NCBI GenBank assembly: GCA_018262795.1
Contig: JADFDM010000015.1
Coordinates: 9,253-73,252, forward strand
Reading direction: 5' to 3'
Length of the DNA: 64,000 nt
From: Sphingobacteriales bacterium
Lineage (GTDB): Bacteria; Bacteroidota; Bacteroidia; Chitinophagales; LD1
Shown here: in pieces, positions 12,905 through 57,911 of the stretch
Position numbering within the stretch: the first letter of the stretch is position 1
Layout of the letters: every line of letters begins with the position of its first letter
Position numbers and translations under genes: made by a program
Notes under the pieces: model-generated
The model's database searches: none
Seen by the model: the letters and a program-made list of their open reading frames with translations, nothing else
What the model was told of the DNA's origin: nothing

Positions 12905-13047
12905 AAAGTAGGAGAATCCAAAATCGGGCAACCGGCCACTCACAACAGGCAACTGATTTCGTTCCGTATAAACACACGTGGTGCAAAGGTTTTAGAAACA
13001 AGACGCGGCAGTAAGGTGCCAACTATTGATTCACTATGGCCTACCGG

Positions 13048-14241
13048 TTAAAGGTTATTAGCAGTTTTGCGCTTGAGTCTTTTTACAAATAGGTAGGTGA
13101 TAATCCATGCTGTGAAGGCGCAGATGGCAGCCAGGGTGAAACTGCCCACTACATATTGCAGAAAATTTTGGCCAATCATTTCGGGTTTTAGGTTTTCGTT
13201 AAAGCTCAAACTTAGGGTATTGCTGCCCATCCATATACGGCCGGTTTGGTAGCTGCCAAAAACGATAAAGGGAATCATGGGCGGCACACTGATGTTGGAG
13301 GCCAGGATGGCAAGAGCTTTGTTGAGGTGGAAAAGCCAAGCGAAGAAAAGGACGAACCAGATTTGCAAACCCCAGAAGGGGGTGATGCCGAAGAACACGC
13401 CTACGGCCATGCTCCATGCTTTGGTGGTGGGGGTTTCGTGGGAGCGAATGAGGTATTGCTCAAAGATATGTTCCCACTTTTTTTCTCGGAGTGAGCGGAT
13501 AAAGTTGCGGGGTTTTATCCAGGCAAAGGTCCAGAATACGAACACGGTGTTGAGTACGCTGATGCGCGAAAAATCTTGAAAGGGGCGAAAGTGCGAAATG
13601 CGCTCCTGGGCAGGTGGGTAATATACTTTGATGGGGACGGCCAGCACGTTTATCCCGCTCCATGCAGCCCGCACAATGACTTCAATTTCGAACTCGTATT
13701 TGCGGGTAAAAAAACGGAGATGGCTGAGTTGCTTAATGGGATAAAGACGATAGCCGGATTGGGTGTCGGGCAGCGAAATGCCGGTTTCTAATTCGAACCA
13801 AAAGTTAGAGAATTTATTGCCGAAGCTGCTTTTGCCGGGCACGGTGCGCTGCTGCATGTTGCGCGCACCAATCACGATGGCATTTTTGTGTTGCTCGAGC
13901 ATGGCGAGCATGGTGGGAAGGTCTTCGGCATAGTGTTGCCCATCGGTATCTAAGGTGATGGCGTAATCGTATCCATCTTGAACGGCAAACTGAAAGCCTT
14001 GCCGCAAAGCCCAACCCTTCCCTCGGTTAGGGGCATAGCTATATAGCTTTATCTGCGGAAACTGTGCGAGAATTTCGAGGGTGTTATCGGTAGAGCCATC
14101 ATTGACCACTACTACCTGATGGGTGTATTGAAGCACCTCGTTGATTACAGCAGCAATGGTGTGGCTGTTGTTATAGGTAGGAAGCAATACACAGCAGCGA
14201 AGACTTTTAAACTTTTGCGGGCATGCCGATTTATCGCTCAT
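13048..14241 (-). CDS. Family-2 glycosyltransferase fused to DUF2062-type membrane domain (last gene of polyene-lipid cluster)
   Basis: The N-terminus has CCVLLPTYNNSHTI...VVVVNDGSTDNT...TLDTDGQH (GT2 fold, DxD). The C-terminal ~150 aa hold 3-4 TM helices (AWSMAVGVFFGITPFWGLQIWFVLFFAWLF). Its start overlaps the upstream dehydratase gene by 11 nt. Confidence 0.8.
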   Translation of the reverse strand: MSDKSACPQKFKSLRCCVLLPTYNNSHTIAAVINEVLQYTHQVVVVNDGSTDNTLEILAQFPQIKLYSYAPNRGKGWALRQGFQFAVQDGYDYAITLDTDGQHYAEDLPTMLAMLEQHKNAIVIGARNMQQRTVPGKSSFGNKFSNFWFELETGISLPDTQSGYRLYPIKQLSHLRFFTRKYEFEIEVIVRAAWSGINVLAVPIKVYYPPAQERISHFRPFQDFSRISVLNTVFVFWTFAWIKPRNFIRSLREKKWEHIFEQYLIRSHETPTTKAWSMAVGVFFGITPFWGLQIWFVLFFAWLFHLNKALAILASNISVPPMIPFIVFGSYQTGRIWMGSNTLSLSFNENLKPEMIGQNFLQYVVGSFTLAAICAFTAWIITYLFVKRLKRKTANNL

Positions 14242-29574: not shown

Positions 29575-29588
29575 CTAACAGTTGTTAG
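29575..29588 (+). promoter_or_regulatory. Candidate TetR/PaaR operator palindrome CTAACA-GT-TGTTAG
   Basis: Perfect 6-bp inverted arms lie immediately upstream of the TetR ATG (29591). The sequence resembles the Thermus PaaR consensus CNAACGNNCGTTNG as I recall it. A second palindrome, GCGAA-N7-TTCGC, sits at 29559-29575. Confidence 0.4.
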
Positions 29589-29590
29589 CC

Positions 29591-30169
29591 ATGAGCACCA
29601 CTACATTAAGCACAAAAGACAATATTCGCCATACAGCCGAAAAGCTTTTCCGCGAGAGAGGATATGCTGCTATTGGTATGCGGGAGCTGGCACGTGAAGT
29701 AGGAATTGAAGCTCCGAGTATTTACAACCATTATAAGTCAAAGGATGATTTGTTACGTGAAATTTGCTTCGACATAGCCGAGCAATTTTTCAAAGCCTTT
29801 GAAATAGCCGAGAGAATACACGAAAAGCCCGGCAAAAAAATAAAGCAGTTGATGAAAGCGCACGTAAGTGTGATTGCCCGAAATCTTGAAGCCTCAGAAG
29901 TGTTTTTCAATGAATGGATGTTTCTGCAAGAGCCGCATCTATCTGACTTTAAGAAGCAACGGTACGAATACGAAATGAAATTTCGGGAAGCGATTGAAGC
30001 GGGAATGAAACAGGGAAGTTTCAAAAAGATGAATTCAAAATTAGTTGCTTTTGCAATTTTTTCCTCCTTAAATGCCACCTATGATTTGCTTAAAAACAAT
30101 GAACCGATGGCGGAGGAGAACATCGCGGAAGACATTGCCAATCTTTTATTAAAAGGACTTAAAGAGTAA
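29591..30169 (+). CDS. TetR/AcrR-family transcriptional regulator (possible PaaR-type)
   Basis: N-terminal HTH: [44 protein letters not shown]. It ends 20 nt upstream of paaA on the same strand. Confidence 0.85.
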
Positions 30170-30189
30170 TTAAAAAAAACAAAACCATT

Positions 30190-31176
30190 ATGTACGGAAG
30201 CACTAATATTACAGAGGAAGATGCCCGAAGAATGAATGTAAGCGATGAAGAGCCGGAGAAATTACTGGCCTTTGAAGATCGGATAGCCCGCGGTGAAAAG
30301 ATTGAACCGGGCGACTGGATGCCGAAGGAATACCGAAGGCAGTTGCTTCGAATGATTGAGCAACATGCCCACAGTGAAATTGTAGGCGCACTTCCCGAAG
30401 GCACTTGGATTACCCGCGCTCCTAATTTCAGGCGCAAGCTGGCTTTAATTGCCAAGGTGCAGGACGAAATTGGCCATGGGCAATTATTGTATTCTGCGGC
30501 TGAAACGCTGGGGAAAACTCGTGAACAAATGCTGGAAGACTTGCTGAACGGCAAGAGCAAATACTCCAATGTATTTAACTATCCGGCTAAAACTTGGGCC
30601 GACATAGCTGTGATTGGATTTTTAGTAGATGGAGCGGCTATCGTTAATCAAGTCATTAATTCCAAAGGCTCTTATGGGCCTTACTGTCGGGCATTGGAAA
30701 GAATATGTTACGAGGAAAGTTTTCATTTAAAACAAGGACACGATAATGTGGTTTATCTCGCCACCGGCACCAAACATCAGCGAGCCATTCTACAAGATGC
30801 CATTAATCGCTGGTACCGCCCGCTGTTACACTTCTTTGGGCCACCCGATAAAATGAGTGCCCACAGTGAAAAATTGATGAAATGGAAAGTAAAGCTGGCT
30901 TCCAATGATGATATGCGCAATCAGTTTCTCGATCAGTATGTGCCCAAAATTTTAGAGTTAGACATTACTTTTCCCGACCCTAATCTTCGGAAAAACAACG
31001 ATGGTATTTGGGAATTCAGCGACCCAGATTGGGAGGAGTTTAAACGAGTAATAAACGGTGGCGGCCCTTGTAATGCCGAGCGATTAGAAGTCAGAAGGTA
31101 TGCTGAGGAAGCAGGCCGTTGGGTGCGCCAAGCACTCTTGAATCCGCAAGAGAAATATCAAGTTCCATTAGCTTAA
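30190..31176 (+). CDS. paaA: 1,2-phenylacetyl-CoA epoxidase, catalytic subunit A
   Basis: [57 protein letters not shown] and [11 protein letters not shown] are collinear with E. coli PaaA. Confidence 0.92.
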
Positions 31177-31191
31177 AAAAAGAAGAATAGC

Positions 31192-31563
31192 ATGAGTTCA
31201 TTAGATCCCCGAGTCAATCGGCTCGACACAAAAAAAGTAAAGGATGGAGAGCTACACACTAACTCCCATCTGATTACCTGGGAGGTATTCCATCAGGAAA
31301 AGCGCGGCAAACAAGTGACCCATTGCGGCATTGTTCACGCTTCCACACCCGAAATAGCATTGGTGCTTGCCAAAGAACAATTTGCTCGCAGAGGGAAGAC
31401 CACTAATCTTTGGGTAGCTAAAACCACAGATATTTATACTTTTTCCTCAGAGGACGAAGATATTTTTGAAACCACTCCGGAGAAAACTTTCCGGGAACCG
31501 GGCGCTTATAAAGTGCGCGGAAGAATTGAAAAATTTCAGAAAGAAAATAAAGCTGACGTATGA
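31192..31563 (+). CDS. paaB: 1,2-phenylacetyl-CoA epoxidase subunit B
   Basis: WEVFHQEKRGKQVTHCGIVHASTPEIALVLAKEQFARRGKTTNLWV matches the PaaB pattern, and the gene sits in the paaB position. Confidence 0.85.
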   Translation: MSSLDPRVNRLDTKKVKDGELHTNSHLITWEVFHQEKRGKQVTHCGIVHASTPEIALVLAKEQFARRGKTTNLWVAKTTDIYTFSSEDEDIFETTPEKTFREPGAYKVRGRIEKFQKENKADV

Positions 31564-32318
31564 ATAACAACGCTGTGAAAGAATTACTGTATAAAATGGC
31601 TGATGACGCACTAATAATCGGCCATCGCAATTCAGAATGGACCGGTATAGGACCTATGTTGGAAGAAGACTTGGCGTTTTCTTCTATTGCTCAAGACAAA
31701 ATAGGCCATGCGCTGGCACTTTACACCATACTGCACGATGTGTTGGGCGAACCGCATCCCGATCAACTGGGCTTTATGAGAAAGGAAAAAGATTTCCACT
31801 GCTGCCAATACGTGGAACAGCCTATTGGCGAATATGACTTCAGTCTAATGAGGCAGTTTCTTTTTGACAATGCCGAATTACTGCGCTATGAGGCACTCAC
31901 TCGATCTTCTTTTGAGCCTTTGGCACAGTTAGCTCGCAAAGCGAAAGGAGAAATAAAATACCACGTGATGCATGGCGATACTTTTATGAAGCAACTCGGC
32001 AACGGCTCAGAAGAAAGCCAGGCTCGCTTACAAAGTGCATTAAACAATTCCTGGCATCTGGCACTTGGAATCTTTGAAAATAGTGAGTTTGAAAAGGAGT
32101 TGATACAAGAAGGAATTTTTACCGGAGAAGAAGAATTGAAAAGAAAGTGGCTGGAGAAAATCACTCCCACCCTTGAAGCGGCAAATCTTAAATTACCCGC
32201 AACCGAAGAAAATAAAATAGTGTATGGTGGTCGAAAAGGTTCCCATTCAGAATTTCTAACTCCCTTGTTAAATGAAATGACCGAAGTGGTTCGTACAGAT
32301 ATAGACGCAGAATGGTAA
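31560..32318 (+). CDS. paaC: 1,2-phenylacetyl-CoA epoxidase subunit C
   Basis: A 252-aa protein with LLYKMADDALIIGHRNSEWTGIGPMLEEDLAFSSIAQDKIGHA, a ferritin-like PaaC pattern. It has a 4-nt overlap with paaB. Confidence 0.85.
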   Translation: MNNNAVKELLYKMADDALIIGHRNSEWTGIGPMLEEDLAFSSIAQDKIGHALALYTILHDVLGEPHPDQLGFMRKEKDFHCCQYVEQPIGEYDFSLMRQFLFDNAELLRYEALTRSSFEPLAQLARKAKGEIKYHVMHGDTFMKQLGNGSEESQARLQSALNNSWHLALGIFENSEFEKELIQEGIFTGEEELKRKWLEKITPTLEAANLKLPATEENKIVYGGRKGSHSEFLTPLLNEMTEVVRTDIDAEW

Positions 32319-32322
32319 ATAA

Positions 32323-32829
32323 ATGGCGGAAGTAAAAAACATAAGCGAAGAAGAGGTATGGTCAGCTCTCGAAAATGTAAAAGACCCGGAGATTCCTGTG
32401 ATTTCTATTGTGGAAATGGGAATGATAACTGGAGTAGAGTTGACTTCCACTTCAAAATGCGTGGTCACTATGACTCCTACCTTTGTAGGTTGCCCGGCTA
32501 TTGGCATGATGAAAAAAGATATTGCCGAACAGATGACCAAATTAGGATTTGAAGAAGTGGAAGTACGGGTTGACTTAGCCACAAGCTGGACCAGCGACCG
32601 CATGCAACCGGAGGCAAAAAGAAAACTTGAGAAATTTGGACTGGCTCCCCCTCCCTCTTTATTAGCAGACGAAGAACTCAGCGAAGAAGTGCTCAATCGA
32701 GTTCGCTGTCCGCATTGCGGAAGCACAGATACCACCCTGCGATCATCTTTTGGTTCTACCCTTTGCAGAGCCATTCGCTTTTGTTTTCACTGCAAGCAGG
32801 GCTTTGAGCAGTTTAAACCCGTTCAGTAA
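32323..32829 (+). CDS. paaD: 1,2-phenylacetyl-CoA epoxidase subunit D (DUF59 domain + C-terminal Cys cluster)
   Basis: It has VWSALENVKDPEIPVISIVEMGMI (DUF59) and a C-terminal RCPHCGS...CRAIRFCFHCKQGFEQFK. Confidence 0.85.
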   Translation: MAEVKNISEEEVWSALENVKDPEIPVISIVEMGMITGVELTSTSKCVVTMTPTFVGCPAIGMMKKDIAEQMTKLGFEEVEVRVDLATSWTSDRMQPEAKRKLEKFGLAPPPSLLADEELSEEVLNRVRCPHCGSTDTTLRSSFGSTLCRAIRFCFHCKQGFEQFKPVQ

Positions 32830-32850: not shown

Positions 32851-32882
32851 ATGAAGGCCGAGTGGCCTCACTCTTCATTTTT
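32851..32882 (+). terminator. Candidate rho-independent terminator after paaD
   Basis: ATGAAG-GCC-gagt-GGC-ctcact-CTTCAT gives a 6+3 bp stem with an internal loop, followed by a TTTTT run. Confidence 0.45.
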
Positions 32883-32961: not shown

Positions 32962-34833
32962 ATGAAGCAGTTGTACTTTTTGTTCTTGCTCTGGATAAGC
33001 TCACCAGTTTTTTCGACCGCATCCGATGTAAATCTATTAAACGATAGCGCTGCATCACTTTTAAACTCCAACCCTAAAGAAGCGCTCAAGCAAGCCCGCC
33101 ATGCAAAACTGGAAGCAGAAAAAGCAAAAGATGAATTCGGAGTAGATCGCGCCTTTGCACTAATAGGGGTGGCTCATTATAAAATAGATCATTATGACAG
33201 TGCTAAATTTTATTTGAACCGAGCCATTGACTTGGCAGAAGAAAATTCAGATTCCATTTCTTTGGCGTACGCTACTTATTGGAAAGGGAATATAGAGTTG
33301 TTTAAAGGATCATACTCAAAAGCGTTGGATCTATATCAGAAAGTTTATACCCTTTCAATGAAAACAGGGGATAAACAAAATATGACCCGCGCCATTGACG
33401 GGAAAGCATCTATCTATGAATCGCTGGACGAAACCGATAAAGCAGAAGAGTATTACCTCGAAGCATTGAAAATCGCCCAAGAATCAGACTTTGACGAGTG
33501 GATACCAACAGTCACCTTTTCATTGGGCAACATTGCTTATAAAAAGGGGAAAATAGAGGAGGCAATAAAAAAGTATCAAGAGGCTATACGCCTATCCGAT
33601 GCAAGTGGCAACTTGAACAATAAGGCGAACTGCCTACAGCAATTAGCCTCCATTTATTATGAGCAGAATAAGTCAGAGGAAGCGATAGAATTTATTCGGC
33701 AGGCGATGGATATTTTCAAGGAAACCGGTTCCGCTTCTTCCTTCAGTTACAGCCGGCTGCTGATGAGTGCTATTCTATTAAAGGATAAAGAATGGGATTT
33801 GGCCATTAAGCTGGCACAAAACTCATTAGAGGAAGGGAAAGCGAAAAAAGATGTTGCCTTACAACGAGATGCTGCTGAAATTCTCTATTATGCTTATCGG
33901 GGGAAAAAGAGCACTGCCGAAGCACTCGACTTCCACATTATGTTTCATCAACTCTCTGAAAGTAAACACCGGGAGGAGTTGACCAAAAAATTGACGCAGA
34001 TGGAATTGCAATCTAATTTCGAAAATGAACGAAAGATTGATAAAGCGCGTCAAGAAAAATTAAATGCCGAAATGAATGCCCGCATAGGAGAAGAAAAATT
34101 GATGAAGAAGGCGGTCATCATTGGTTTTATTTTTATTGCCCTGATAGCCGCAGTAGCCATTTTTGCTTTTATGCAAAAGCGCAAAGATACCCGACTGATT
34201 GATGCTGAAAAAAGAAAGAGCGATGAACTACTCAGAAGCCTGTTGCCCCATACACTGATTGCAGAAGTACAAGAACAACGCAAACACTTGAGCAATAATC
34301 ACTGTACCGTCATCTTTGCCGATATTAAAAATTCATCCGGATCGACAGAAACTATTAAAGCAGAAAGAGCGCTTTTCACTAAAACATTCAATGCTATTTT
34401 AGCAAAACATCAATTAGAAAGTATCAAAGGTGATGATGAGGTATTGATGGGAATAGGGCAAAATGGAACCTCGGCCAAACACTTAGCGACCAGCGTGATT
34501 CGAGGTGGAATTGAACTGTTGGAATTTGCTAAAATGAGAAAGGCAGAAAATCAGAAAAACGGAAATCCTTTTCTTGAAATCGGTATTGGCATTCATACCG
34601 GTTCCGTTATTGCAGGAATCGTTGGTTTAAAAACCTCCGGCCACGATATTTGGGGCGATACCGTAAACATTGCCGCCAGGATAGAACAACACGGCATGGC
34701 GGGGAAAGTCAATATTTCATCGGCTACCTATTCTTTTGTAAAGGATGATTTCAATTGTGTGCACTATGGCAACATTCCCATCAGCGGTGACGGAGAGCTT
34801 GAAATGTATTTTATTGATTTGTCACTGGCTTAA
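32962..34833 (+). CDS. Membrane-anchored TPR-sensor class III nucleotide cyclase (divergent first catalytic half)
   Basis: A signal peptide and a ~340-aa TPR-like ectodomain are followed by a coiled coil and a TM helix (AVIIGFIFIALIAAVAIFAF). The cyclase domain has VIFADIKNSS, SIKGDDEVLMG and IGIHTGSVIAGIVGLKTSGHDIWGDTVNIAARIE. Confidence 0.8.
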   Translation: MKQLYFLFLLWISSPVFSTASDVNLLNDSAASLLNSNPKEALKQARHAKLEAEKAKDEFGVDRAFALIGVAHYKIDHYDSAKFYLNRAIDLAEENSDSISLAYATYWKGNIELFKGSYSKALDLYQKVYTLSMKTGDKQNMTRAIDGKASIYESLDETDKAEEYYLEALKIAQESDFDEWIPTVTFSLGNIAYKKGKIEEAIKKYQEAIRLSDASGNLNNKANCLQQLASIYYEQNKSEEAIEFIRQAMDIFKETGSASSFSYSRLLMSAILLKDKEWDLAIKLAQNSLEEGKAKKDVALQRDAAEILYYAYRGKKSTAEALDFHIMFHQLSESKHREELTKKLTQMELQSNFENERKIDKARQEKLNAEMNARIGEEKLMKKAVIIGFIFIALIAAVAIFAFMQKRKDTRLIDAEKRKSDELLRSLLPHTLIAEVQEQRKHLSNNHCTVIFADIKNSSGSTETIKAERALFTKTFNAILAKHQLESIKGDDEVLMGIGQNGTSAKHLATSVIRGGIELLEFAKMRKAENQKNGNPFLEIGIGIHTGSVIAGIVGLKTSGHDIWGDTVNIAARIEQHGMAGKVNISSATYSFVKDDFNCVHYGNIPISGDGELEMYFIDLSLA

Positions 34834-34889
34834 CCAGTATTATTATTTACTTTGTCACCTCAGTTAGGCTCAAATTCATCTATTCACTT

Positions 34890-36179
34890 ATGTACCGTTT
34901 CTCTAAACTACTGCTTCTCTTTTTGTTGACGATAGGCTTCTTCCCGATGTATGCGCAATCGGGAAATAGCTCTAAACAGAAACAATTAGAAGAGATTAAG
35001 AAGCAGATTCAGGAAGATCAGAAAACCATTCTGCAACAACAGGAGTGGAATGACCAGTCTGCCCAACAAGAAATCAAAAAGTTAAATCAGGAAAACAAGA
35101 AGAAGAGTTTAGAAGTGCAATCTTCTAAGCAGGAGGCACAAAGCGCCAAGCAGGAAGCCCAGAAAGCCAAATTGGAATTACAGAACAAGCAGGTGGAGTT
35201 ATTGGAAACTCAGATAAAAATTGATTCTGCTAAAAGTATTCTGGACGAAACAGAAGCCCGGTTACAGTCGGCTGAAATGATTAACAAACGGATTTTAGAG
35301 GAGAAGCAAAGACAGGACGACAGCGTAAAAATTCTGAAGAAAGAACAGGAATTACAGGATGTTCAATTACAAGCCAAGCAGGTAGAACTGACTGCTCAGA
35401 AAGCAAAAAACGCTTTCTACATCATTATCGCAGGCATCTCTTTAACTCTCTTCTCCATCATCATTGTATTATTTCTGGGTCGGCAAAAAACGCTTCGTGA
35501 TTTAGGGGAGAAAAACAAAGTAATAGAAGAAGAAAAAAGAAAGAGCGATGAGTTGCTGCTCAACATTCTTCCCGAAGAAGTGATGCACGAATTAAAAGCG
35601 CATGGCAAAACTCAGGCGCGCAATTACTCGAAGGCTTCGGTGCTGTTTGCCGATATCAAAGACTTCACTTCCATCAGCGAGCGCTTAACTCCCGATGAAC
35701 TGATAGAGGGCTTAGACACCTATTTTGAACGATTCGATAAAATCATTGAGAAGCACAACATTGAGAAGATAAAGACCATAGGCGATGCTTATGTATGTGC
35801 CGGGGGCGTGCCTACCAAAAGTGAGGATAATGCTTTTGATGTAGTGCAGGCCGCACTTGATTTTCAAAAGGAAATTGAACGACTGCGGGTTGAACGTACT
35901 GCAAAAGGGAAAATTCCGTTTGAGTTCCGCATAGGTATCCATACCGGTCAGTTAGTTGCGGGAGTTATCGGTATTCGGAAGTTTGCCTATGATATTTGGG
36001 GCGATACCGTGAACATGGCCGCCCGGATGCAGCAGGCCGGAGAACCCGGAAAGATTAATATTTCAGGAGCCACCTATGAAATTGTAAAGCATAGATTTGT
36101 TTGCACCCCTCGTGGAAAGCATGAAGCAAAGAACAAAGGAGCCGTTGAAATGTATTTCGTTGAAAAGGCCATAAGCTGA
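34890..36179 (+). CDS. Membrane-anchored coiled-coil class III adenylate cyclase (all canonical catalytic residues)
   Basis: A signal peptide and a Q/K/E-rich coiled coil are followed by a TM helix (FYIIIAGISLTLFSIIIVLFLG). The cyclase domain has VLFADIKDFT, IKTIGDAYV and IGIHTGQLVAGVIGIRKFAYDIWGDTVNMAARMQ. Confidence 0.85.
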   Translation: MYRFSKLLLLFLLTIGFFPMYAQSGNSSKQKQLEEIKKQIQEDQKTILQQQEWNDQSAQQEIKKLNQENKKKSLEVQSSKQEAQSAKQEAQKAKLELQNKQVELLETQIKIDSAKSILDETEARLQSAEMINKRILEEKQRQDDSVKILKKEQELQDVQLQAKQVELTAQKAKNAFYIIIAGISLTLFSIIIVLFLGRQKTLRDLGEKNKVIEEEKRKSDELLLNILPEEVMHELKAHGKTQARNYSKASVLFADIKDFTSISERLTPDELIEGLDTYFERFDKIIEKHNIEKIKTIGDAYVCAGGVPTKSEDNAFDVVQAALDFQKEIERLRVERTAKGKIPFEFRIGIHTGQLVAGVIGIRKFAYDIWGDTVNMAARMQQAGEPGKINISGATYEIVKHRFVCTPRGKHEAKNKGAVEMYFVEKAIS

Positions 36180-36208
36180 TTATTAAATAATTTTATTTTT
36201 ATCCCTTC

Positions 36209-36799
36209 ATGAGGACGTTTGAAGAAGTAGAAACGCATATCATCGGCAAGTTAAAAAGAGAGCTTCCGAAAGACTTATATTACCACGGGCTTCACCACAC
36301 CCTGGATGTTCTACGCTCTGCCCAAATGATAGGGAAAGAAGAGAAGATTAATGACGAGGAAATGTTTCTATTGAAAGTAGCTGTGCTGTATCACGATTCG
36401 GGGTTCACCAAAACATATAAAAACCATGAGGAAGCGGGTTGTGAAATGGCTCGCGAAGACCTTCCTGCATTTGGATTTACAGAGAATGAAATAGAGAAGA
36501 TATGTGGCATGATAATGGCCACCAAAATTCCCCAAAATCCCAAAACGAAATTAGAATTCATTATTGCCGATGCTGATTTGGAATACCTCGGGACCGATCA
36601 GTTTGACAAAGTAGGCAGAACCTTGTATGAAGAAATGAAGATTTATGTGAATTTGGAGGGGGAGCGCCAATGGAACATCATCCAAATGAACTTTTTAAAA
36701 TCACACCACTACTTTACCGATTTCTGCAAAAAGAACAGGGAAGATGCAAAGCAGAAACATCTACAGGAGATTATTCGCATGGTGAATAGCTACGATTAA
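36209..36799 (+). CDS. HD-superfamily phosphohydrolase (possible cNMP phosphodiesterase)
   Basis: A 196-aa protein with YYHGLHHTLDVLRSA ... VAVLYHDSGF, the H..HD metal-binding pattern. It starts 30 nt downstream of the second cyclase. Confidence 0.7.
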   Translation: MRTFEEVETHIIGKLKRELPKDLYYHGLHHTLDVLRSAQMIGKEEKINDEEMFLLKVAVLYHDSGFTKTYKNHEEAGCEMAREDLPAFGFTENEIEKICGMIMATKIPQNPKTKLEFIIADADLEYLGTDQFDKVGRTLYEEMKIYVNLEGERQWNIIQMNFLKSHHYFTDFCKKNREDAKQKHLQEIIRMVNSYD

Positions 36800-37260
36800 T
36801 TTTTGCCCTGCTCGGTAGATTTTATATTTTGGGCTCGCAGCCTTCTGCAAAGTGTCTTTATAATTCCTTTGGCTACCTCAATTCGGCTCTCCATTATTTC
36901 ATAAAATGGCTCCTGATCTAATTTTAGCAACAAGGCTTCTGTTTGCGTAGTAGCACTGGCAGAACGGGTTTCCGTATCTAAGAGCGACATCTCTCCGAAA
37001 AAATCATTCTCCTTAGAGATAGCAAGCGTATGCTCGTTCTTATGAATGCGCACCTCCCCTTTGAATATGATATACATGCACTGCCCCACCTCTCCTTCCT
37101 TGAAAATATTTTGGTTCTTCTCAAACTCCACCTCTTCCAATATCTCGGCTACTTCGGCCAGCACGGTTTCAGGTGTTTCTTCAAACAGGCTAAGCGATTT
37201 GAGCAACAGCACTTTCTCAATCAGCAATAAGCGGTTTTCGTGTTCTTGTACTTGAGCCAT
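36796..37260 (-). CDS. Stand-alone cyclic-nucleotide-binding (CNB) domain protein
   Basis: A 154-aa protein with IFKEGEVGQCMYIIFKGEVRI ... FFGEMSLLDTETRSASA, the phosphate-binding cassette. It has no DNA-binding or other effector domain. Its start is 1 nt after the stop of the upstream membrane-protein gene. Confidence 0.85.
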   Translation of the reverse strand: MAQVQEHENRLLLIEKVLLLKSLSLFEETPETVLAEVAEILEEVEFEKNQNIFKEGEVGQCMYIIFKGEVRIHKNEHTLAISKENDFFGEMSLLDTETRSASATTQTEALLLKLDQEPFYEIMESRIEVAKGIIKTLCRRLRAQNIKSTEQGKN

Positions 37261-37261
37261 A

Positions 37262-40006
37262 TCAGTTTAATTCTGCCAGAATTTTTGAGGCGGTTTCGTG
37301 AATTAGTTTGTCCGTTTCATTTTGGACTTTATGGAGCCACACTTTTTTGTTTCCGCCTTTGTAAAAGATCAGCGAATAGATAGCTGCCGCCCGCGTCCAG
37401 CGATGGTAATGATGATGTTTATTACTTAAAATTTCTTCGATGGTGCTCTCGTAGCTGACTTGCTCTTTAAAGTACGGGCTCAATGTATTACAGCGATCTT
37501 CTACTCCGGCCGATTCAAATATGACAATAAATTTAAGGGAGATTTCTTTGGGCACTTCAATCTCAATGATCTCCAGCGCATTGGCGATACTCTCTTTCTT
37601 TTTTATCAGAAAAGCATTTTTGGCTTTTATCATTTTCTCCTTGTCATACACAAATGAAAACAACAGCAACATTGAATCTCTGATTTCATCCAGTTCGAGG
37701 TGTAGCGCATCTGCCAATACACGGCTCGACTTTGGCAACTCCCTGATCATAAAAAGGATGCGAATAGCCGAAGTGAGGTATTGATTCATCAGTTCGATGT
37801 GGTGTTGTAGATGATGGGGCTGCGATTTAAATTCGCAGAGATGCAGAGAGTGGAAAATAAGCCTGCGCATGGTTGGAAGTTTCCACACCAAATCGTCCAA
37901 CAGGTTAATAGCCGCCTCGCTTCCTATTCTTCCGCAGAGTAAAATAAGTTTCGATTGTTGTTGATGGCTGAGCTTGTGTTGCAGCAAAGCGTTGCGGATT
38001 TGCAAGAGCGACTGATCCCCTAAACCCAACAGTGCTTCCAACGCTTGACGTTCATTTTTAGTTGCCAGAAAAAACTGCATCACCGGCTCTGCTAAATTTT
38101 TATTTTTCACCTTCCCCGAAGCCGCTATAGCCGCTAAAACTACACTATCATCTTCATCCTGCATCAACCGAAGCAATGGTTTATAAAACGAAGCCACTTC
38201 GAGGTCCCCTATAATTTCTGCCGCCAGCTTTCGGTCTGCGGCATTTGAAGAGTCCAGCAGGTTCAGCAATTTTTGCCCTGCCGTAACTACAGCACCAATA
38301 CCGCCACTGGTCATAAAGCCGGTGATAGAAGCCTTGACCAAGCCCCGGTCACTTTCGTTCAGAAACATATCCATGTCGCTCACCTCATCGGGCTGTAGCA
38401 TACACTTAGCTTTCACCGCTTCCGCCAACAAAGTGGCCTCCCTTTTTTGTTCGATAATTTCGTCAATGAAAGGGAGCGCCTCTGTCAACTTTCTACGCTC
38501 TACTAATTTCAGTGCTTCCATTTTCACTTCTTCAATGGGATGTTTCAGCGCCATCAAAATAATTTTATCCTTATCGGAGGAATATTGTTTGTCTAAAAGA
38601 TGAAGGATATAAATGGCCTCGCCTCTTTCTCCGTTGGTGATTTTCTCTATCAACACCTGACGGGTTTTTTCATTTTCCAAATCAATTTCCTGCCCTATAG
38701 AATACCTTCGATTCAGCGCCTTCATCAACGTTTTCACATATTCTGTATCCACCAAAAAAATCATGACCACCCAAACTATGAGCAGGGTAAAAAGCATATA
38801 ACTCAACTGAAACAAATCCACTCTACCTGAAATTTTCAGCAGACTGAATAACATAAAACCACTAAAGGCTAAGGCAAAGGGATCCATCACTCCCTTTACA
38901 ATCATGTGACCTTTCAATCGCAAAGGAGAAGTAAGCGGCTGCATCAGTGAAAGAAAGACCGGGTCTTGCAACGAAGTTTTGAGCACCTCAGTCACTATAG
39001 CCATGATTCCGAAAATATAGAGGATAGCTATTTTTTCGTGTGATATGACAGGGAGAAAAATAATGACAATGAGAAAGACAAAGAGGATAATCGGGCTGAC
39101 GAGTAATGCTCCTTTGGTTCCGAGGCGACTGGTAATTCGACCTGTAAAAATGAGTCGGATAAAAATGGCCAGCACCCTTCCTCCGGCATAGAACATAGCA
39201 ATAAATCCGGCTAACTGTTCATTGGTATGTGTTTCGTGTTTTATTTCTGAATAAAAGGAGAAACTGATAATGGTTACACAGGTCATCACAATAAATGAAA
39301 GTCCGGCCACCATCGCAATCATGCGGTTGCCAAAAAATCCTTTTGCGATGTCACGCAGTGTTACCGATGCGCGGTGTGGTGCATGTTCGTGCGCTACATG
39401 AATATCGAGCTTGCCCGCTTTGCTCAAGCGGTAATAAAAAATGAGCGCTGTCAGGATGGACAAACTGGAAAGAATAAGCAGATTGATGCTTCCTACAAAA
39501 GGGATTAAAACCGGCACTGCCGTATAGCCTATCAGCTTTGCCGGAATATCGCCTGCCCCAATCATGCCGAACAATCGCTTGCTTTGGCGAATATCAAATA
39601 ACAGCGCAGCCACTCCCCAAAACTCCAGATTGCTGAGCAGGTATATCACATAATACCAAGAGAACATCAGGAAAATGAATACGGGGCTGTTGATGAAACT
39701 GAATTGCAGACGGAAGGCGAGAATACTGAGCGCAATAGTGACGATAACTGCCGGCACCAGTCTTTTGATGTGCATGGAATGCTCGAACTTGCTATATATC
39801 CAACCGGTAACCCAAAGCAACAGTGCCGAAAACATATACACTTCGGGTAGCTTATGTATTTCAAAATGTGTTAGAAATAAAGCAAAGGCTACAGTGTTGA
39901 AAATGGCCACTCCGGCCCCCTGAAAAAACTGTAACAAAAAAAGGTTGGTCACTAACCACGACTCATCGCTGCGGATATTAAATAGAGATAGTAAACGGTT
40001 TCGCAT
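37262..40006 (-). CDS. Polytopic TLC/Npt-like (MFS-type) membrane domain fused to a HEAT-repeat domain
   Basis: The N-terminal ~430 aa hold about 11-12 TM helices and EFWGVAALLFDIRQSKRLFGMIGAGDIPAKLIGY, which resembles the FW...ANxI...AKRFYxLFGxGAN motif of ATP/ADP-translocase-like proteins. The C-terminal ~480 aa are helical repeats (e.g. AADRKLAAEIIGDLEVASFYKPLLRLMQDEDDSVVLAAIAASG). Confidence 0.6.
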   Translation of the reverse strand: MRNRLLSLFNIRSDESWLVTNLFLLQFFQGAGVAIFNTVAFALFLTHFEIHKLPEVYMFSALLLWVTGWIYSKFEHSMHIKRLVPAVIVTIALSILAFRLQFSFINSPVFIFLMFSWYYVIYLLSNLEFWGVAALLFDIRQSKRLFGMIGAGDIPAKLIGYTAVPVLIPFVGSINLLILSSLSILTALIFYYRLSKAGKLDIHVAHEHAPHRASVTLRDIAKGFFGNRMIAMVAGLSFIVMTCVTIISFSFYSEIKHETHTNEQLAGFIAMFYAGGRVLAIFIRLIFTGRITSRLGTKGALLVSPIILFVFLIVIIFLPVISHEKIAILYIFGIMAIVTEVLKTSLQDPVFLSLMQPLTSPLRLKGHMIVKGVMDPFALAFSGFMLFSLLKISGRVDLFQLSYMLFTLLIVWVVMIFLVDTEYVKTLMKALNRRYSIGQEIDLENEKTRQVLIEKITNGERGEAIYILHLLDKQYSSDKDKIILMALKHPIEEVKMEALKLVERRKLTEALPFIDEIIEQKREATLLAEAVKAKCMLQPDEVSDMDMFLNESDRGLVKASITGFMTSGGIGAVVTAGQKLLNLLDSSNAADRKLAAEIIGDLEVASFYKPLLRLMQDEDDSVVLAAIAASGKVKNKNLAEPVMQFFLATKNERQALEALLGLGDQSLLQIRNALLQHKLSHQQQSKLILLCGRIGSEAAINLLDDLVWKLPTMRRLIFHSLHLCEFKSQPHHLQHHIELMNQYLTSAIRILFMIRELPKSSRVLADALHLELDEIRDSMLLLFSFVYDKEKMIKAKNAFLIKKKESIANALEIIEIEVPKEISLKFIVIFESAGVEDRCNTLSPYFKEQVSYESTIEEILSNKHHHYHRWTRAAAIYSLIFYKGGNKKVWLHKVQNETDKLIHETASKILAELN

Positions 40007-40056: not shown

Positions 40057-40563
40057 CTACTTGCGCTTGGCCAGCTTCTTTTTGTAAAATTCTTTGTCGG
40101 CAGTGTAAATGGTTTTAGTGAAGGTGGCATATACTTTCCCGGCTTCATCTTCAAAGTGCAGGGGCAAATCGAATATGTATTCGCCCTTCATCTCAATCTG
40201 GTGTTTAATCTCCGCCACCTTCTCTTCTGTAATCAGGAAGCGGCATTTTACTCTTTTCGTAATTGGCCTTACAAACTTTACGGAAGCGGCCTTGTCCCAC
40301 ACCACATAGTCTTTCCCTAATATCTCCATCAACATCAGCATATAATATGGATCAATGGAACTATAAATGCTGCCACCAAAAACCGTAGCCACTCGGTTGC
40401 GAGTTCGGATGTTTAGTTTCAAACTCACATGCACTTCGCGAAAGTCGCCAGAAATAAATTGCACCTTTCCTCCACTGCACCAAATGCAGGGCCAGTAGTT
40501 AAAAACCCAACGCATTCGCCTCGTGCGAAATGATTCTATTTTTTCGGTAGTGTATAATTTCAT
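40057..40563 (-). CDS. DUF4442-like hotdog-fold protein (putative thioesterase-like)
   Basis: A 168-aa protein. VHVSLKLNIRTRNRVATVFGGSIYSSIDPYYMLML and VWDKAASVKFVRP resemble DUF4442/YiiD-C proteins. The assignment is from memory. Confidence 0.5.
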   Translation of the reverse strand: MKLYTTEKIESFRTRRMRWVFNYWPCIWCSGGKVQFISGDFREVHVSLKLNIRTRNRVATVFGGSIYSSIDPYYMLMLMEILGKDYVVWDKAASVKFVRPITKRVKCRFLITEEKVAEIKHQIEMKGEYIFDLPLHFEDEAGKVYATFTKTIYTADKEFYKKKLAKRK

Positions 40564-40645: not shown

Positions 40646-41017
40646 TTAGTTGTTGCTTTTGGTTTGGAGGGTTTTCAGGGTAGTGTTAAGGCCTGCAATA
40701 ATCTTATTGATGAGTTGTATTCTTTCCCCGGCAAGTTCTTCGCCCAATAAAAACCGTGAGCGGGTATAGCCTCCTTTGGTTTCGCGGGCAGAGCCACGTG
40801 CATAGCGCAGAAACTGCGGATACTCCTTCCCGAATCCTCTTCCGTAACCTTCTTCAATATTTGCCGCTATAGAATAGGCCGAGCGAGTCAGCTGTTCCGC
40901 TATCTTCTTCCCCCTAATATCCTTTATCATCTTTTCCGAATCCACTTTCCAGAACAAATCCCATAGCTCCATAGCCAGTTTGTAAACTCCGAAATTTTCC
41001 AGATTATCCTTTTCCAT
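40646..41017 (-). CDS. Four-helix-bundle protein (23S rRNA intervening-sequence protein / Avd family)
   Basis: FGVYKLAMELWDLFW ... AEQLTRSAYSIAANIEEGYGRGFGKEYPQFLRYARGSARET matches the TIGR02436-type pattern. The ATG at 41017 (MEKDNLENF) is preferred, because the track's N-terminal MTGDGWRVKGKG is only a translation of the repeat array. Confidence 0.8.
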   Translation of the reverse strand: MEKDNLENFGVYKLAMELWDLFWKVDSEKMIKDIRGKKIAEQLTRSAYSIAANIEEGYGRGFGKEYPQFLRYARGSARETKGGYTRSRFLLGEELAGERIQLINKIIAGLNTTLKTLQTKSNN

Positions 41018-41052
41018 CTTTTCGCTTTCTATAAAAGTAAAACCTTTCCCCT

Positions 41053-41306
41053 TCACCCGCCACCCGTCACCCGTCACCCGTCACCCGTCACCCCGTCACC
41101 CGTCACCCGTCACCCCGTCACCCGTCACCCGTCACCCGTCACCCCGCCACCCCGCCACCTGTCACCCCGCCACCTATCACCCGCCACCCCGCCACCTGTC
41201 ACCCGCCACCCCGTCACCTGTCACCCGCCACCCGTCACCTGTCACCTGTCACCCGTCACCCCGCCACCCGCCACCCCGCCACCCGCCACCCCGTCACCCC
41301 GCTACA
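41053..41306. repeat. Tandem array of about 35 units of CCGTCAC / CCGCCAC / CTGTCAC (7-8 nt), C-rich on the + strand
   Basis: By direct reading the array is cgtcacc x many, interspersed with ccgtcacc, c(c)gccacc, tgtcacc and tatcacc. It ends 50 nt before the aminopeptidase ATG. Confidence 0.9.
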
Positions 41307-46432: not shown

Positions 46433-46480
46433 ATGATAGAAGCGACTACCTAAATCCTTTAAAGAGTTGATATATAGCCA

Positions 46481-49400
46481 ATGAATTTGAAAGTGAAAAA
46501 TCTTCATGAACTTTTGTCGCAACTAAATGACCTTGTCAAAGGAACATCGTCTGAAATTAGTGCGCAAAACGAAGCTCCTATACGTTCAGAACTATTTAAC
46601 TCTGACCAAATGCTTCAGCATTGTCCGGCCTTGGCAAAGTCGCATAAGCTGAGCAAGAAAAAGATACCCGACCGCCTACTACCTCGGCTTGCCAATAATG
46701 AAAGAGTACTGCTTCAAGTACGCCAATCACTTACCAAATCTATGAAGCAGGATTATCAAATGAGCGCTGCCGGAGAGTGGCTCTTAGATAATTTCTATTT
46801 GATTGAGGAGCAAATTCGACTGGCAAAAAAACATCTTCCGAAGGGCTATAGTGAAGGCTTGCCGCAGTTGCAGGAAGGGGCATCAGCAGGGTTGCCACGA
46901 GTGTATGACATTGTGCTCGAATTGATTTCCCACAGCGATGGAAGAATAGACAAGGAAAGCATCAGCGAATTTATTAAATCGTATAACGCGATTACCCACC
47001 TAAAGTTAGGGGAGTTGTGGGCCATTCCGATTATGGTGCGGCTGGCGCTAATCGAAAATTTGCGAAGAGTGGCGGCATTAGTTGCGGTCAGTGATGCACA
47101 GAGAAATTTGGCTGATTACTGGGCTAAAGAATTATCAGATACCGCAGAGAACAAACCTCAGAATTTAATTTTGGTGTTGGCCGATATGGCGCGATCGAAC
47201 CCTCCATTAGAGCGTGCTTTTGTTGCCGAGTTTACGCGCCAACTTCGCGGCAAGGGACCCACGCTTGCGCAAGCACTCAATTGGATGGAACAGCGGTTAG
47301 CGGAGAACGGCCAAACGAGTAATGAATTGGTGCAAGATGAAAACCAGCAGCAGGCAGCAGATCAGGTTTCTGTGAGCAACAGTATTGCGAGTTTAAGAGA
47401 GTTAAGTGCTATTGACTGGCGGCTTTTTGTGGAAGAGCATAGCATCGTTGAGCAAATTCTTCGCGAGGATGCTATTTACCCGCAAATGGATTTTTCGACT
47501 CGCGACCGGTATAGGCATGTGATAGAGCACCTTGCAAAAAATTCAGAATTGTCGGAAGAAGAAGTGGCGAGAGTTGCGGTGCAACTCGCACAAGACGATG
47601 CTAAAAAAGAAATGCCGGATGCCAAAACTTCGCATGTTGGGTATTACCTTATCAGTAAAGGATTAGAACAAACCGAAAGAAAGACAGAGAAGCGAATCCG
47701 TTTTTCAGAGCGGCTGAGAAAAGCCACTGCAAAATTCTCTCTGACTTTTTATTTGGGCAGTATATTATTGATAGCGTCCGCCATTACTGCGGGGGTTATT
47801 TATGAGATGGTTTTGCATATTTCTGATTATCGCATCATCACCATCATCGGGATACTTTGTTTTGTTTGTGCCAGTCAGCTCGCCATCAGTTTTGTCAACT
47901 TCTTTTCCAGCCTAATAGTTCAGCCGGCACTATTACCTCGTATGGATTACTCGGAAGAAATTCCTGAACAGCATCGCTCCTTAATCGTGATTCCTTGTAT
48001 GCTCACGAGTATTGCGGATATAGACCTTTTAGCAGAGACTTTAGAAGTTCACTTTCTCGCGAACAAAGAAAATAATTTACACTTCGCCCTTCTTACAGAT
48101 TTTAAAGATGCGCCACAGCAAGAAATGCCGGAAGATCAAGAGCTGCTGCATTTTGTTCAACATAGAATAAAGGAATTAATCGAAAAATATTCGGAGCAGC
48201 GCAGCGATTTATTTTTCCTATTTCACCGATCTAGGAAATGGAACCCTGCGGGAGGTATTTGGATGGGGTATGAGCGGAAGCGCGGTAAGCTGGAGGAATT
48301 GAACAGTTTTCTTCGCGGAGGTGCCAAGGATTGTTTTTCGCTGATAGTAGGCGAGCAATCAGTGCTGCAAAAAATAAAGTATGTGATTACGCTGGATGCA
48401 GATACTCAACTGCCTCGCGATGCGGCTTGGAAAATGATTGGAGCAATGGCGCATCCATTAAATGAAGCGGTGTATGACCCGAATAAAAAGCGAGTGGTGG
48501 ACGGCTATGGGATTTTGCAGCCGCGGGTGTCGGTGAGCTTGCCCGATATTCATAGTTCACTTTACACCCGCATGAACGGTAACGAGCCGGGGATTGACCC
48601 ATATACCCGGGCTGTTTCCGACATCTATCAAGATATTTTTCAGGAAGGTTCATTTATTGGTAAGGGGATTTACGATGTAGATATATTTTTGAAAGCCTTG
48701 CATGATAAGTTTCCGGAGAATCGGATTCTCAGCCATGACTTACTTGAAGGATGTTATACCCGGTCGGGCTTGTTGAGCGATGTTCAACTTTACGAAAAAT
48801 ATCCTTCGGGGTATCTCACCGACATGCAAAGAAGGCATCGTTGGATTCGGGGCGATTGGCAAATTATGGCGTGGATTCTGCCGATAGTACCCGGCTCAGA
48901 TTTTCGGTGGCACCGCAATCCTCTGTCAGGGTTATCGAGATGGAAAATCTTTGATAACCTTCGCAGAAGCCTTACCCCACTTGCCTTCACCGCCTTCCTA
49001 ATTATTGGCTGGACGGTATTGCCCGCTTCAGGAATATGGACCCTTCTTATTACCGGCATTATTATTCTGCCCGGCATTGTGTTTACCCTCTGGGATATAA
49101 TGCGCAAGCCCAAAGATGTGATTCTGCGCCATCACCTGATACTCTCTTCAGTTAGTGCCGGCAAAACAGCGCTGGAAACTTTTTTTACAGTCATCTGCCT
49201 TCCATACGAAGCGTATATTAATCTGGATGCAATTCTCCGCACCACTTGGCGAATTATTTTTTCGCATAAGAATCTACTTCGATGGAAATCACTCAGCGTA
49301 AATGAATATGGCAAGCGAGAAACACTGATTGCCTCTTATCTATCTATGTGGGCAGAACCGGCTGCGGGATTAATCATTTTTATTTGGCTAAGTATTTTGA

Positions 49401-57447: not shown

Positions 57448-57911
57448 AAGTCGTTATCGCATCCGACCATGCAGGTTTCACCTACAAAACCTTGCTCGTA
57501 AAAGATTTGCAGCAGGCAGGTTACGAAGTAATAGACCTCGGCACACACGGCAATACCCCCGATGATGATTACCCCGATTATGCCGAAGCTTTGGCTTTAG
57601 CCATTCTAAAAAAACAAGCAGAAAGGGGAATCCTGATTTGTGGTAGCGGAGTAGGCGTGTCGGTAGCTGCCAATAAATTTAGAGGGATTAGAGCAGGGGT
57701 TTGTCACGACACTTATTCCGCACACCAATGTGTAGAACACGATAATGTAAATGTGCTTTGCATAGGCGAGCGCATTATCGGTATTGAATTGGCGCGTGAA
57801 ATTGTTTTCGCATTTCTAAAAGCTGTTTACAGTCATGCACCAAGGCATCAACGAAGGTTAGATAAAATAGAAGCTATTGAAAATAAAAACATGAAGGAGG
57901 AACGACTATGA
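57444..57911 (+). CDS. rpiB: Ribose-5-phosphate isomerase B
   Basis: MKVVIASDHAGF and ILICGSGVGVSVAANK in a 155-aa protein. It has a 4-nt overlap with tkt. Confidence 0.9.
   Translation: MKVVIASDHAGFTYKTLLVKDLQQAGYEVIDLGTHGNTPDDDYPDYAEALALAILKKQAERGILICGSGVGVSVAANKFRGIRAGVCHDTYSAHQCVEHDNVNVLCIGERIIGIELAREIVFAFLKAVYSHAPRHQRRLDKIEAIENKNMKEERL

Follow-up and report, generated by a model that had tools for sequence, protein, structure and literature searches.

Nucleotide transporters (NTTs) serve as textbook markers, both for plastids and for a parasitic way of obtaining energy. A branch of these carriers in which the membrane domain is fused to HEAT repeats (NTT-HEAT) was described, with its function unknown, by Major, Embley, and Williams (2017, Genome Biol Evol 9:480; PMC5381601). 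[quoted passage not shown] The same portions contain the proposal that cyclic AMP (cAMP) from adenylate cyclase adjusts the NTT-mediated uptake of ATP. The present work concerns a locus of this kind in a Sphingobacteriales bacterium (assembly GCA_018262795.1, contig JADFDM010000015.1). The window, that is, the whole stretch of 64,000 nucleotides that was analyzed (positions 9,253 to 73,252 of the contig), includes an island of five genes: two membrane-anchored class III cyclases (cyc1 and cyc2), an HD-superfamily hydrolase (HD-D), a stand-alone cyclic-nucleotide-binding protein (CNB), and an NTT-HEAT gene.

The island seems to be a self-contained cAMP module, composed of sensor cyclases, CNB, and HD, whose effector would be a membrane transporter and not a transcription factor. 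A probability of roughly 0.5 is assigned to this reading. At its core, the finding concerns one more member of a family that is published and uncharacterized, because NTT-HEAT and its cNBD are already described in the available portions of PMC5381601. A genetic linkage of this pair with class III cyclases or HD hydrolases finds no mention in these portions and appears to be previously unreported. A first-pass annotation of the window, made from the sequence alone, had treated TLC-HEAT(-CNB) proteins (TLC being the Pfam family of NTT carriers) as functionally uncharacterized and as known from database annotations only. The former still holds; the latter does not, as the architecture had been published together with the idea of cAMP gating.

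The NTT-Like Membrane Domain and the HEAT Solenoid

The protein encoded by NTT-HEAT combines, as it had been annotated, a polytopic membrane domain with HEAT repeats (table 1); the membrane domain has 12 transmembrane (TM) helices. The further claim that the membrane domain is similar to TLC/Npt proteins needed indirect evidence, since the Pfam TLC model does not recognize the single sequence from the window and its match to MFS_1, the model of the major facilitator superfamily (MFS), remains sub-threshold. When 23 family members were combined into a profile of their N-terminal 440 residues and the whole PDB was searched with it, the sole match was the NTT1 of Chlamydia pneumoniae (9j3n), with an E value of 1.4e-10 over ~300 positions. 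The EFWG...SKRLFG motif of the window protein aligns to LMFWGFANE...AKRFYALFG of C. pneumoniae NTT1, and the PL...R/K...K motif, which aligns to PLDQEQKVKGK of the NTTs, retains its basic residues.

The structural comparison gave a similar picture. The AlphaFold2 (AF2) model of NTT-HEAT, with a mean predicted local distance difference test (pLDDT) score of 80.3, consists of 12 long helices, after which comes a solenoid of helical repeats. When this model was searched with Foldseek, the top five matches were all five NTT structures (9j3n, 9j3m, 9j3l, 9j3o, and 9j3j), with E values of 7e-8 to 2e-6 and a target-normalized template modeling score (TM-score) of 0.63–0.71. They outranked every other MFS transporter, including MelB, PiPT, ferroportin, and VMAT. 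The identity of the membrane domain to the solved NTTs is 14–17%.

Relatives with 40–42% identity (P0124 and P0128) exceed the gathering score of Pfam TLC, and one relative of this identity range is named an Npt1/Npt2 family nucleotide transporter by NCBI. The full-length homologues P0320, P0388, P0415, and P0418 exceed the same score, and the JGI labels of family members are either ATP/ADP translocase or AAA-family antiporter. Since the profile match, the five best Foldseek matches, and the TLC-positive relatives agree, the membrane domain is accepted, on the grounds of sequence and model, as a divergent NTT-like carrier domain. In the surroundings of P0164 and P0165, two remote relatives that are TLC-positive, genes for CNB, HD, and cyclases are all lacking, and these contexts are uninformative.

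Many charged or polar residues of the membrane domain, namely E75, D153, K157, K256, R277, R363, H367, K371, and D375, are invariant in 23 sequences with identities down to 38%. In AtNTT1, the charged TM residues K155, E245, E385, and K527 are needed for nucleotide transport. NTT-HEAT may be active in transport, with a nucleotide as its putative cargo.

The presence of HEAT repeats in the C-terminal half is clear from sequence and model. When residues 437–914 were isolated, HEAT_2 was matched with an E value of 2.4e-11, and the profile of the region matched alphaRep/HEAT proteins with E values down to 1e-26. In the AF2 model, the region is made of paired helices with pLDDT mostly between 80 and 93. 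The domain comprises ~470 amino acids and is well conserved. As 12 TM helices leave both termini on the same side of the membrane and the N-terminus is Arg-rich, the HEAT solenoid is predicted to be cytoplasmic.

The window family aligns in full length to TLC-positive, CNB-fused proteins (E values of 1e-146 to 1e-273), which makes it very likely that the window protein belongs to the NTT-HEAT clade as this is described in the available portions of PMC5381601.

The Stand-Alone CNB Protein and Its Fusions to HEAT

Between the stop codon of NTT-HEAT and the start codon of CNB there is, as annotated, one nucleotide (junction ...AAC TGA T ATG GCT...). The CNB protein is nothing but a cNMP_binding domain, with no other or output domain detected by Pfam, which is also in accordance with the first description of the gene. 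Its phosphate-binding cassette, FFGEMSLLDTETRSASA (FFGEMSLL...TRSASA), is intact, and across 73 CNB orthologues its G, E, R, S, and A positions show a conservation of at least 98%. The nearest PDB matches are the CNB domains of PKG/PKA, and the CNB domain of SthK is matched with E values of ~1e-9 to 1e-10. The adenine-type residues of the cyclases (see below) and the intact cNMP-binding cassette together make cAMP the predicted messenger and the probable ligand of CNB. CNB is therefore viewed as the predicted cAMP receptor subunit of NTT-HEAT.

The first-pass annotation had left it to a survey of orthologues whether the CNB domain can be fused to the HEAT protein. An exhaustive profile search at E ≤ 1e-30 resulted in 3078 cluster representatives (clusters at 50% identity), and a hidden Markov model made from free CNB proteins was applied to the best 150. 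Fusion proved to be common, as a C-terminal CNB follows HEAT in 53 of the 128 full-length representatives among them, and it was confirmed by Pfam in P0301, P0311, P0320, and P0415. Of all the evidence for a physical action of CNB on the transporter's HEAT end, this Rosetta-stone pattern is the strongest. In the unfused form of the window, CNB would dock on HEAT as a separate polypeptide.

The fused proteins also have relevant neighbors. In one locus (L087), an HD-family gene is found upstream of the fused NTT-HEAT-cNBD, and in a second (L088), an HD-family gene is located downstream in convergent orientation and a TPR-cyclase upstream.

In a sub-group of long NTT-HEAT proteins (1217–1308 amino acids; representatives P0351, P0388, P0392, P0394, P0400, P0411, P0418, P0429, P0433, and P0434), the HEAT region is extended and a fused CNB is lacking. 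In locus L091, a gene of this sub-group is followed on the same strand by a free CNB gene and then by a receiver-domain cyclase.

The Two Class III Cyclases

The annotation of cyc1 and cyc2 as adjacent, TM-anchored class III cyclases with a TPR and a coiled-coil ectodomain, respectively, is supported by Pfam (table 1), and both proteins have the residue set of class III adenylate cyclases. In cyc2, all six canonical residues are present in the alignment to the C1 and C2 domains of AC8/AC9, that is, both metal-binding Asp, the Lys/Asp pair that specifies adenine, and the Asn/Arg residues of the transition state. They are found in the motifs FADIKDF, IKTIGDAY, and YDIWGDTVNMAARM. The best PDB matches of cyc2 are the mammalian AC8, AC9, and AC5 (E values of ~1e-55, with AC8 at 5e-56), and its score on Pfam Guanylate_cyc is 186 bits. 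Similarly, cyc1 shows the same canonical set when aligned to mammalian AC domains (motifs FADIKN, IK--GDDEV, and HDIWGDTVNIAARI), with a deletion of two residues beside the second metal-binding Asp.

In each protein, a signal-like segment and a single TM helix precede the catalytic domain. Based on this topology prediction, the TPR of cyc1 and the coiled coil of cyc2 should be periplasmic and the cyclase domains cytoplasmic. Just past the TM helix, a juxtamembrane motif, EKRKSDELL(R/L)xxLP, is near-identical in both cyclases (34150-34260 and 35490-35600). The corresponding segment of cyc2 has a weak HNOBA match (residues 198–235), and the EKRKSDELLxxxLP motif seems to resemble a feature of the class IIIa/b cyclases, their cyclase transducer element. 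The shared motif and the conserved pairing of the two genes hint at heterodimerization of cyc1 with cyc2.

Conservation of the Neighborhood in Chitinophagales

The neighborhood was scanned with the window proteins in one genome per species, which gave 80 Chitinophagales loci. Two well-flanked subsets were used, with at least 1.5 kb (63 loci) and at least 4 kb (48 loci) on each side. CNB lies directly downstream of NTT-HEAT in 61 of the 63 loci, and in 46 of the 48 it is contiguous and directly downstream. An HD-family gene is adjacent in 47/63 loci (35 upstream and co-directional, 18 downstream and convergent, and 6 with both) and contiguous in 35/48, with its members belonging to two paralog clades. 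Class III cyclases are contiguous in 14 of the 48 loci and located within 10 kb in 24, where they show TPR, GAF, or REC sensor architectures. By a rough estimate, which assumes ~10 cyclase genes per 5-Mb genome, a cyclase would be expected within 10 kb by chance in ~5% of the loci, versus the 50% observed.

The complete five-gene layout is identical in at least eight metagenome-assembled genomes (L002, L004, L011, L014, L020, L021, L024, and L050), in which the orthologues of cyc1 adjoin cyc2. The nearest relative is one of these Chitinophagales genomes (L002), with 90% protein identity and the same gene order. The co-occurrence of the five genes thus extends well beyond the genome in which it was first noticed, and because the arrangement recurs in dozens of Chitinophagales genomes, it is not a product of chance. 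In one locus (L015), the slot downstream of NTT-HEAT is occupied by a convergent gene of 156 amino acids (12772-13242) with no Pfam match.

A neighbor-joining tree separated the HD genes into two paralog clades, HD-U and HD-D, which match the position of the genes. HD-U opens an operon with the order HD, NTT-HEAT, CNB in Ferruginibacter, Flavihumibacter, Terrimonas, and Flavisolibacter. HD-D, the type found in the window, follows the cyclases and converges on CNB. In the clade with 33–38% identity, an HD paralog is placed directly upstream of and co-directional with NTT-HEAT in 35 loci, often with no cyclase nearby.

Two loci are informative for the association of HD-D. The block paaABCD-(DUF6265)-TPR-cyclase-cyclase-HD-D is intact in both L083 and L093; in the former, the NTT-HEAT/CNB pair is located ~20 kb from the block, and in the latter, the pair is absent from the locus examined. 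HD-D is kept with the cyclases when NTT-HEAT/CNB is apart, and it is therefore tied to the cyclases. The cyclases found near the core in different loci have unrelated sensors (TPR, GAF, and REC), which argues for a functional linkage between the cyclases and NTT-HEAT/CNB, beyond inherited gene order alone.

The HD Protein

HD-D is an HD-superfamily hydrolase, and this part of its first annotation stands. The family-invariant residues include H26, H30, D33, H62, D63, H73, E74, D121, D123, Q159, F162, H166, and Y168, and a subset of the invariant positions forms the H...HD...D pattern usual for metal binding by HD proteins. After the metal site, there is an invariant Q-x-x-F pair, which may resemble the glutamine/phenylalanine clamp of phosphodiesterases (PDEs).

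The relatives of the protein are of two kinds. In the PDB, the family profile matched 2pq7, 3dto, and 3b57, which are uncharacterized or YpgQ-like, with E values of 5e-5 to 2.5e-4 over residues ~22–138 only, and PDE5 with an E value of ~0.13 in the N-terminal half only. The C-terminal third (~138–196), in which Q159, F162, H166, and Y168 are located, matches neither YpgQ-like nor PDE sequences. The AF2 model, made from database homologues, has a pLDDT of 95.9, and its Foldseek matches are weak and mixed: 2pq7 (E value of 2e-4), YpgQ 5dqw (2e-3, target-normalized TM-score 0.67), and PDE5 (3e-3, query-normalized TM-score 0.69), with the PDE2 core being also similar. Sequence, fold, and the per-member Pfam scan together do not separate HD between YpgQ-like NTP hydrolases and class I PDE cores. 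The role in cyclic-nucleotide degradation that had been attributed to the gene is contextual only, and it is from the gene context that HD-D is a candidate cAMP phosphodiesterase.

Proposed Mechanism and Alternative Explanations

Under the proposed module, envelope or extracellular cues would lead the two membrane adenylate cyclases to make cytoplasmic cAMP. The cAMP-bound CNB would dock on the cytoplasmic HEAT solenoid of the NTT-like protein, and this docking would switch transport on or off. The cargo would most likely be an anionic nucleotide, as in NTT carriers, and HD would hydrolyze cAMP and reset the system. The initial interpretation, that the cyclic-nucleotide signal gates transport or a HEAT scaffold rather than transcription, gains support from the NTT affinity of the membrane domain, the co-occurrence of the genes, and the fusions. 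A more specific version is put forward tentatively, as the odds are against its holding in every part. It suggests that, in apparently free-living Bacteroidota, inner-membrane nucleotide uptake or exchange may be gated by cAMP through periplasm-sensing cyclases, a HEAT-docking CNB, and an NTT carrier, with the reset performed by new minimal (~195 amino acids) HD cAMP phosphodiesterases in two paralogs.

Several observations weigh against the cAMP module. The window protein has no match to Pfam TLC (PF03219), even at E ≤ 10, and none in NCBIfam. In two loci (L015 and L018), NTT-HEAT is present with no CNB gene at the locus, about a quarter of the 48 well-flanked loci have CNB and no adjacent HD, and a cyclase at a distance of up to 10 kb is lacking in half of them. 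As for HD, its best sequence relatives are YpgQ-like hydrolases (E value of 5e-5), Foldseek places YpgQ and PDE5 about equally and both weakly, and in the per-member Pfam scan PDEase_I is significant in no member (4 of 26 match, with a best E value of 0.018). A literature search for TLC/HEAT/CNB work found nothing relevant, and no functional study or experiment on any NTT-HEAT member was found.

The same signaling and transport core is also compatible with a different role of HD, that of a nucleotide phosphohydrolase (a YpgQ-like NTP pyrophosphohydrolase or a nucleotidase) which processes the imported cargo; the operon opened by HD-U would then combine enzyme, carrier, and regulator. The best sequence and structure relatives, including YpgQ (5dqw) and its structural-genomics homologues 2pq7, 3dto, and 3b57, are in favor of such an enzyme, as are the upstream, co-directional and often cyclase-free position of the HD paralog in the 35 loci of the 33–38% clade and the fact that the literature search found no HD-type bacterial cAMP phosphodiesterase. 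On the contrary, HD-D remains with the cyclase pair and not with the transporter in L083 and L093, the Foldseek scores of class I PDE cores (query-normalized TM-score 0.69) are on a par with that of YpgQ, and the invariant Q-x-x-F pair may resemble the PDE clamp. Cargo processing is thus a doubtful but serious competitor for the role of HD. A larger departure from the cAMP-gated carrier would be that the NTT-like domain moves cAMP itself, with CNB as a binding or hand-off protein, or that transport has been lost and the domain acts as a receptor or scaffold with cAMP-dependent recruitment through HEAT. The divergence of the domain (no Pfam TLC match and 14–17% identity to solved NTTs) would fit this, and so would a well-conserved HEAT region of ~470 amino acids, which is larger than a simple docking pad requires, and the variants of 1250–1300 amino acids with extra HEAT repeats and no CNB. 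However, the invariant charged and polar membrane residues are those expected for a working substrate path, the basic residues are kept in the motif aligned to PLDQEQKVKGK, and, to our knowledge, no NTT carries cyclic nucleotides. This explanation is considered unlikely.

It may also be that only the CNB/NTT-HEAT pair is coupled and that the cyclases and HD are inherited-synteny neighbors beside the paa operon. The order paaABCD-cyc1-cyc2-HD is indeed conserved in the close clade with or without NTT-HEAT/CNB alongside, and, among the 48 well-flanked loci, a contiguous HD is missing from 13 and a cyclase at up to 10 kb from 24. Nevertheless, in the distant clade and around the fused forms, NTT-HEAT is again flanked by GAF, REC, and long-TPR cyclases and by HD, and such a variety of architectures, orders, and orientations cannot be explained by one inherited ancestral gene order, so that mere synteny is judged quite improbable. 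A Pycsar-like anti-phage system, in which infection triggers a cyclic nucleotide and a CNB effector kills through the membrane protein, was suggested by weak PADLOC matches: both cyclases match PycC models (best E value of 4.6e-15, 53.6 bits), and PycTIR is matched by CNB in its CNB part (E value of 4.7e-20). These matches are at the domain level only, and cyc2 compares better with Guanylate_cyc (186 bits) and AC8 (5e-56). The cyclases have purine-type (Lys/Asp) residues and appear to be sensors in the membrane whose sensing domains are periplasmic, a TIR or TM effector domain is missing from CNB, NTT-HEAT and HD have no PADLOC match, and the genes are syntenic and vertically conserved amid housekeeping genes with flat GC content. 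Because of the purine-type residues, the predicted periplasmic sensors, the lack of an effector domain, and the housekeeping context, defense was rejected, with hardly any probability left to it.

Locus Layout and Genomic Context

All five genes and the DUF4442 gene were found at the coordinates first assigned to them, and the sequence motifs quoted for them are present (table 1). HD-D starts 29 nucleotides after the stop codon of cyc2.

Table 1. Genes and Domains of the Cyclase/NTT-HEAT Island (positions within the window)
Feature	Position	Strand	Product and evidence
cyc1	32962-34833	+	623 aa; signal-like segment, TPR, 1 TM helix, Guanylate_cyc (Pfam E 5e-28; many TPR families)
cyc2	34890-36179	+	429 aa; signal-like segment, coiled coil rich in Q/K/E, 1 TM helix, Guanylate_cyc (Pfam E 6e-55)
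HD-D	36209-36799	+	196 aa; HD-superfamily metal-dependent phosphohydrolase (Pfam HD E 7e-8)
CNB	36796-37260	-	154 aa; stand-alone cNMP_binding (Pfam E 6e-21)
NTT-HEAT, whole gene	37262-40006	-	914 aa; HEAT_2 E 8e-10; MFS_1 E 2.5e-5, under Pfam cut-off
NTT/TLC-like 12-TM MFS domain of NTT-HEAT (aa 1-437)	38696-40006	-	Profile and fold
HEAT-repeat solenoid of NTT-HEAT (aa 445-914 and stop codon)	37262-38674	-	Pfam HEAT_2, profile, AF2
DUF4442 hotdog-fold protein	40057-40563	-	Pfam DUF4442 E 1e-15

The convergent HD-D and CNB genes overlap at their stop codons in the tetranucleotide TTAA (36796-36799), and a terminator is absent between them. With such convergence, transcription of the cyclase/HD unit and of the NTT-HEAT/CNB unit may interfere with each other, or there may be antisense read-through between the two. 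Tight convergent packing of HD and CNB was also observed in L084 (overlap of 10 nucleotides) and L092 (gap of 1 nucleotide).

The DUF4442 gene had been placed immediately upstream in the same minus-strand unit, and it is indeed found 50 nucleotides upstream of NTT-HEAT on the same strand. In the clade with 58–90% identity, many loci but not every one have it in this upstream place, and in the 33–38% clade it is never adjacent; DUF4442 is a peripheral, clade-specific neighbor.

On the other side of the island, a TetR gene and paaABCD, which encode subunits of phenylacetyl-CoA oxygenase, are located directly upstream of cyc1 (29582-32829, + strand). A terminator-like hairpin between paaD and cyc1 (32860-32873) is only suggestive. 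Scans for sigma-70 promoters and intrinsic terminators gave counts at or below the shuffle expectation, with Bacteroidota promoters being outside the coverage of that scan.

The GC content is flat across the island, the flanks contain housekeeping genes, and the window as a whole is an ordinary Bacteroidota chromosome. A recent horizontal acquisition of the island was rejected because of the flat GC content, the housekeeping flanks, and the conserved synteny.

Small four-helix-bundle genes (23S_rRNA_IVP / TIGR02436) were repeatedly found inserted within otherwise conserved operons. They are located between NTT-HEAT and CNB in L017 (4579-4965) and L019 (12778-13200), between paaA and paaB in L082/L083 (2199-2582), and upstream of DUF4442 in the window (40646-41077, - strand). 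These genes behave like small mobile or selfish cassettes.

Elsewhere in the window, there are two very large secreted proteins of 1535 and 1647 amino acids (2071-6675 and 6728-11668, both on the - strand) with CHU_C type IX secretion signals, one of which has also seven PKD stretches and DUF7948. An open reading frame (ORF) of 2894 amino acids (46478-55159, + strand) contains a GH94 catalytic domain together with two stretches of GH94 supersandwich and a domain of the glucoamylase-like type, and is presumably similar to cyclic beta-1,2-glucan synthase. Shortly downstream of a transketolase gene, an ORF of 950 amino acids (57887-60736, + strand) combines transaldolase (E value of 1e-84) with phosphoglucose-isomerase, that is, a fused TAL-PGI.

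Significance of the Linkage

The NTT-HEAT branch is large, as seen from its 3078 clusters, and a function has been lacking since its description in 2017. At the locus presented here, genes for making, probably degrading, and sensing a cyclic nucleotide surround NTT-HEAT, and a vague idea becomes a concrete and testable circuit. The architecture of NTT-HEAT itself is not new; it is through the conserved link to cyclase and hydrolase genes that a control of transport by cAMP can be tested directly. Several carriers of the genes are in culture (Flavihumibacter cheonanensis, Flavihumibacter fluminis, Terrimonas pollutisoli, and Terrimonas sp. R1), so that genetic and biochemical work is feasible.

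If the module functions as proposed, it would provide the first regulated NTT and the first function for the NTT-HEAT clade, as well as the first post-translational cAMP effector known in Bacteroidota. It would also represent a new mode of regulation of an MFS carrier, through a HEAT solenoid, and possibly a new family of bacterial cAMP phosphodiesterases. In addition, it would offer a lead on the uncharacterized NTT-HEAT protein of Chlamydia trachomatis.

Comparison with Known Systems

In relation to the NTT-HEAT(-cNBD) proteins of PMC5381601, as far as they are presented in its available portions, the window shows the same domain order, with the cNBD downstream or fused. The window family differs in having two recurrent HD paralog clades and cyclases with varied sensors as its neighbors.

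Among hydrolases, the H...HD...D metal site is common to the HD protein, the YpgQ-like HD hydrolases, and the class I PDEs. The HD protein has a fold similar to the class I PDEs (PDE5 and PDE2 cores) but no significant PDEase_I match, and it is related to the YpgQ-like hydrolases through weak profile matches (2pq7, 3dto, and 3b57) and a likeness of fold (5dqw).

The closest 12-TM MFS fold is that of the canonical NTT/TLC carriers, such as C. pneumoniae NTT1/Npt1 and AtNTT1 (PF03219, TC 2.A.12; PDB 9j3j-9j3o), which share the FWG...KR(L/F)(F/Y)...G and PL...K/R motifs with the window protein. In contrast to them, the window protein, at 14–17% identity, falls under the Pfam TLC threshold and has a HEAT solenoid of 470 amino acids and a dedicated CNB partner. 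The hosts also differ, as the window family is found in apparently free-living Chitinophagales, including cultured strains, whereas canonical NTTs are found in obligate intracellular parasites or plastids.

A similar arrangement of genes is found in the SbtA-SbtB system of cyanobacteria, where a small stand-alone nucleotide-/cAMP-sensing protein is encoded directly downstream of the transporter gene, as is CNB here. SbtB probably regulates SbtA by binding to the cytoplasmic face of the transporter. However, SbtB is PII-like and not a CNB protein, SbtA is a bicarbonate transporter without HEAT, and no cyclase or hydrolase is linked to the pair. As regards the mode of control, the SthK and MloK1 channels are a parallel, since in them a CNB domain directly controls membrane transport and not transcription, as is proposed here. 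These are tetrameric ion channels with a C-linker and a fused CNB, whereas in the window the putative target is an MFS carrier with a HEAT solenoid and the CNB is a separate polypeptide.

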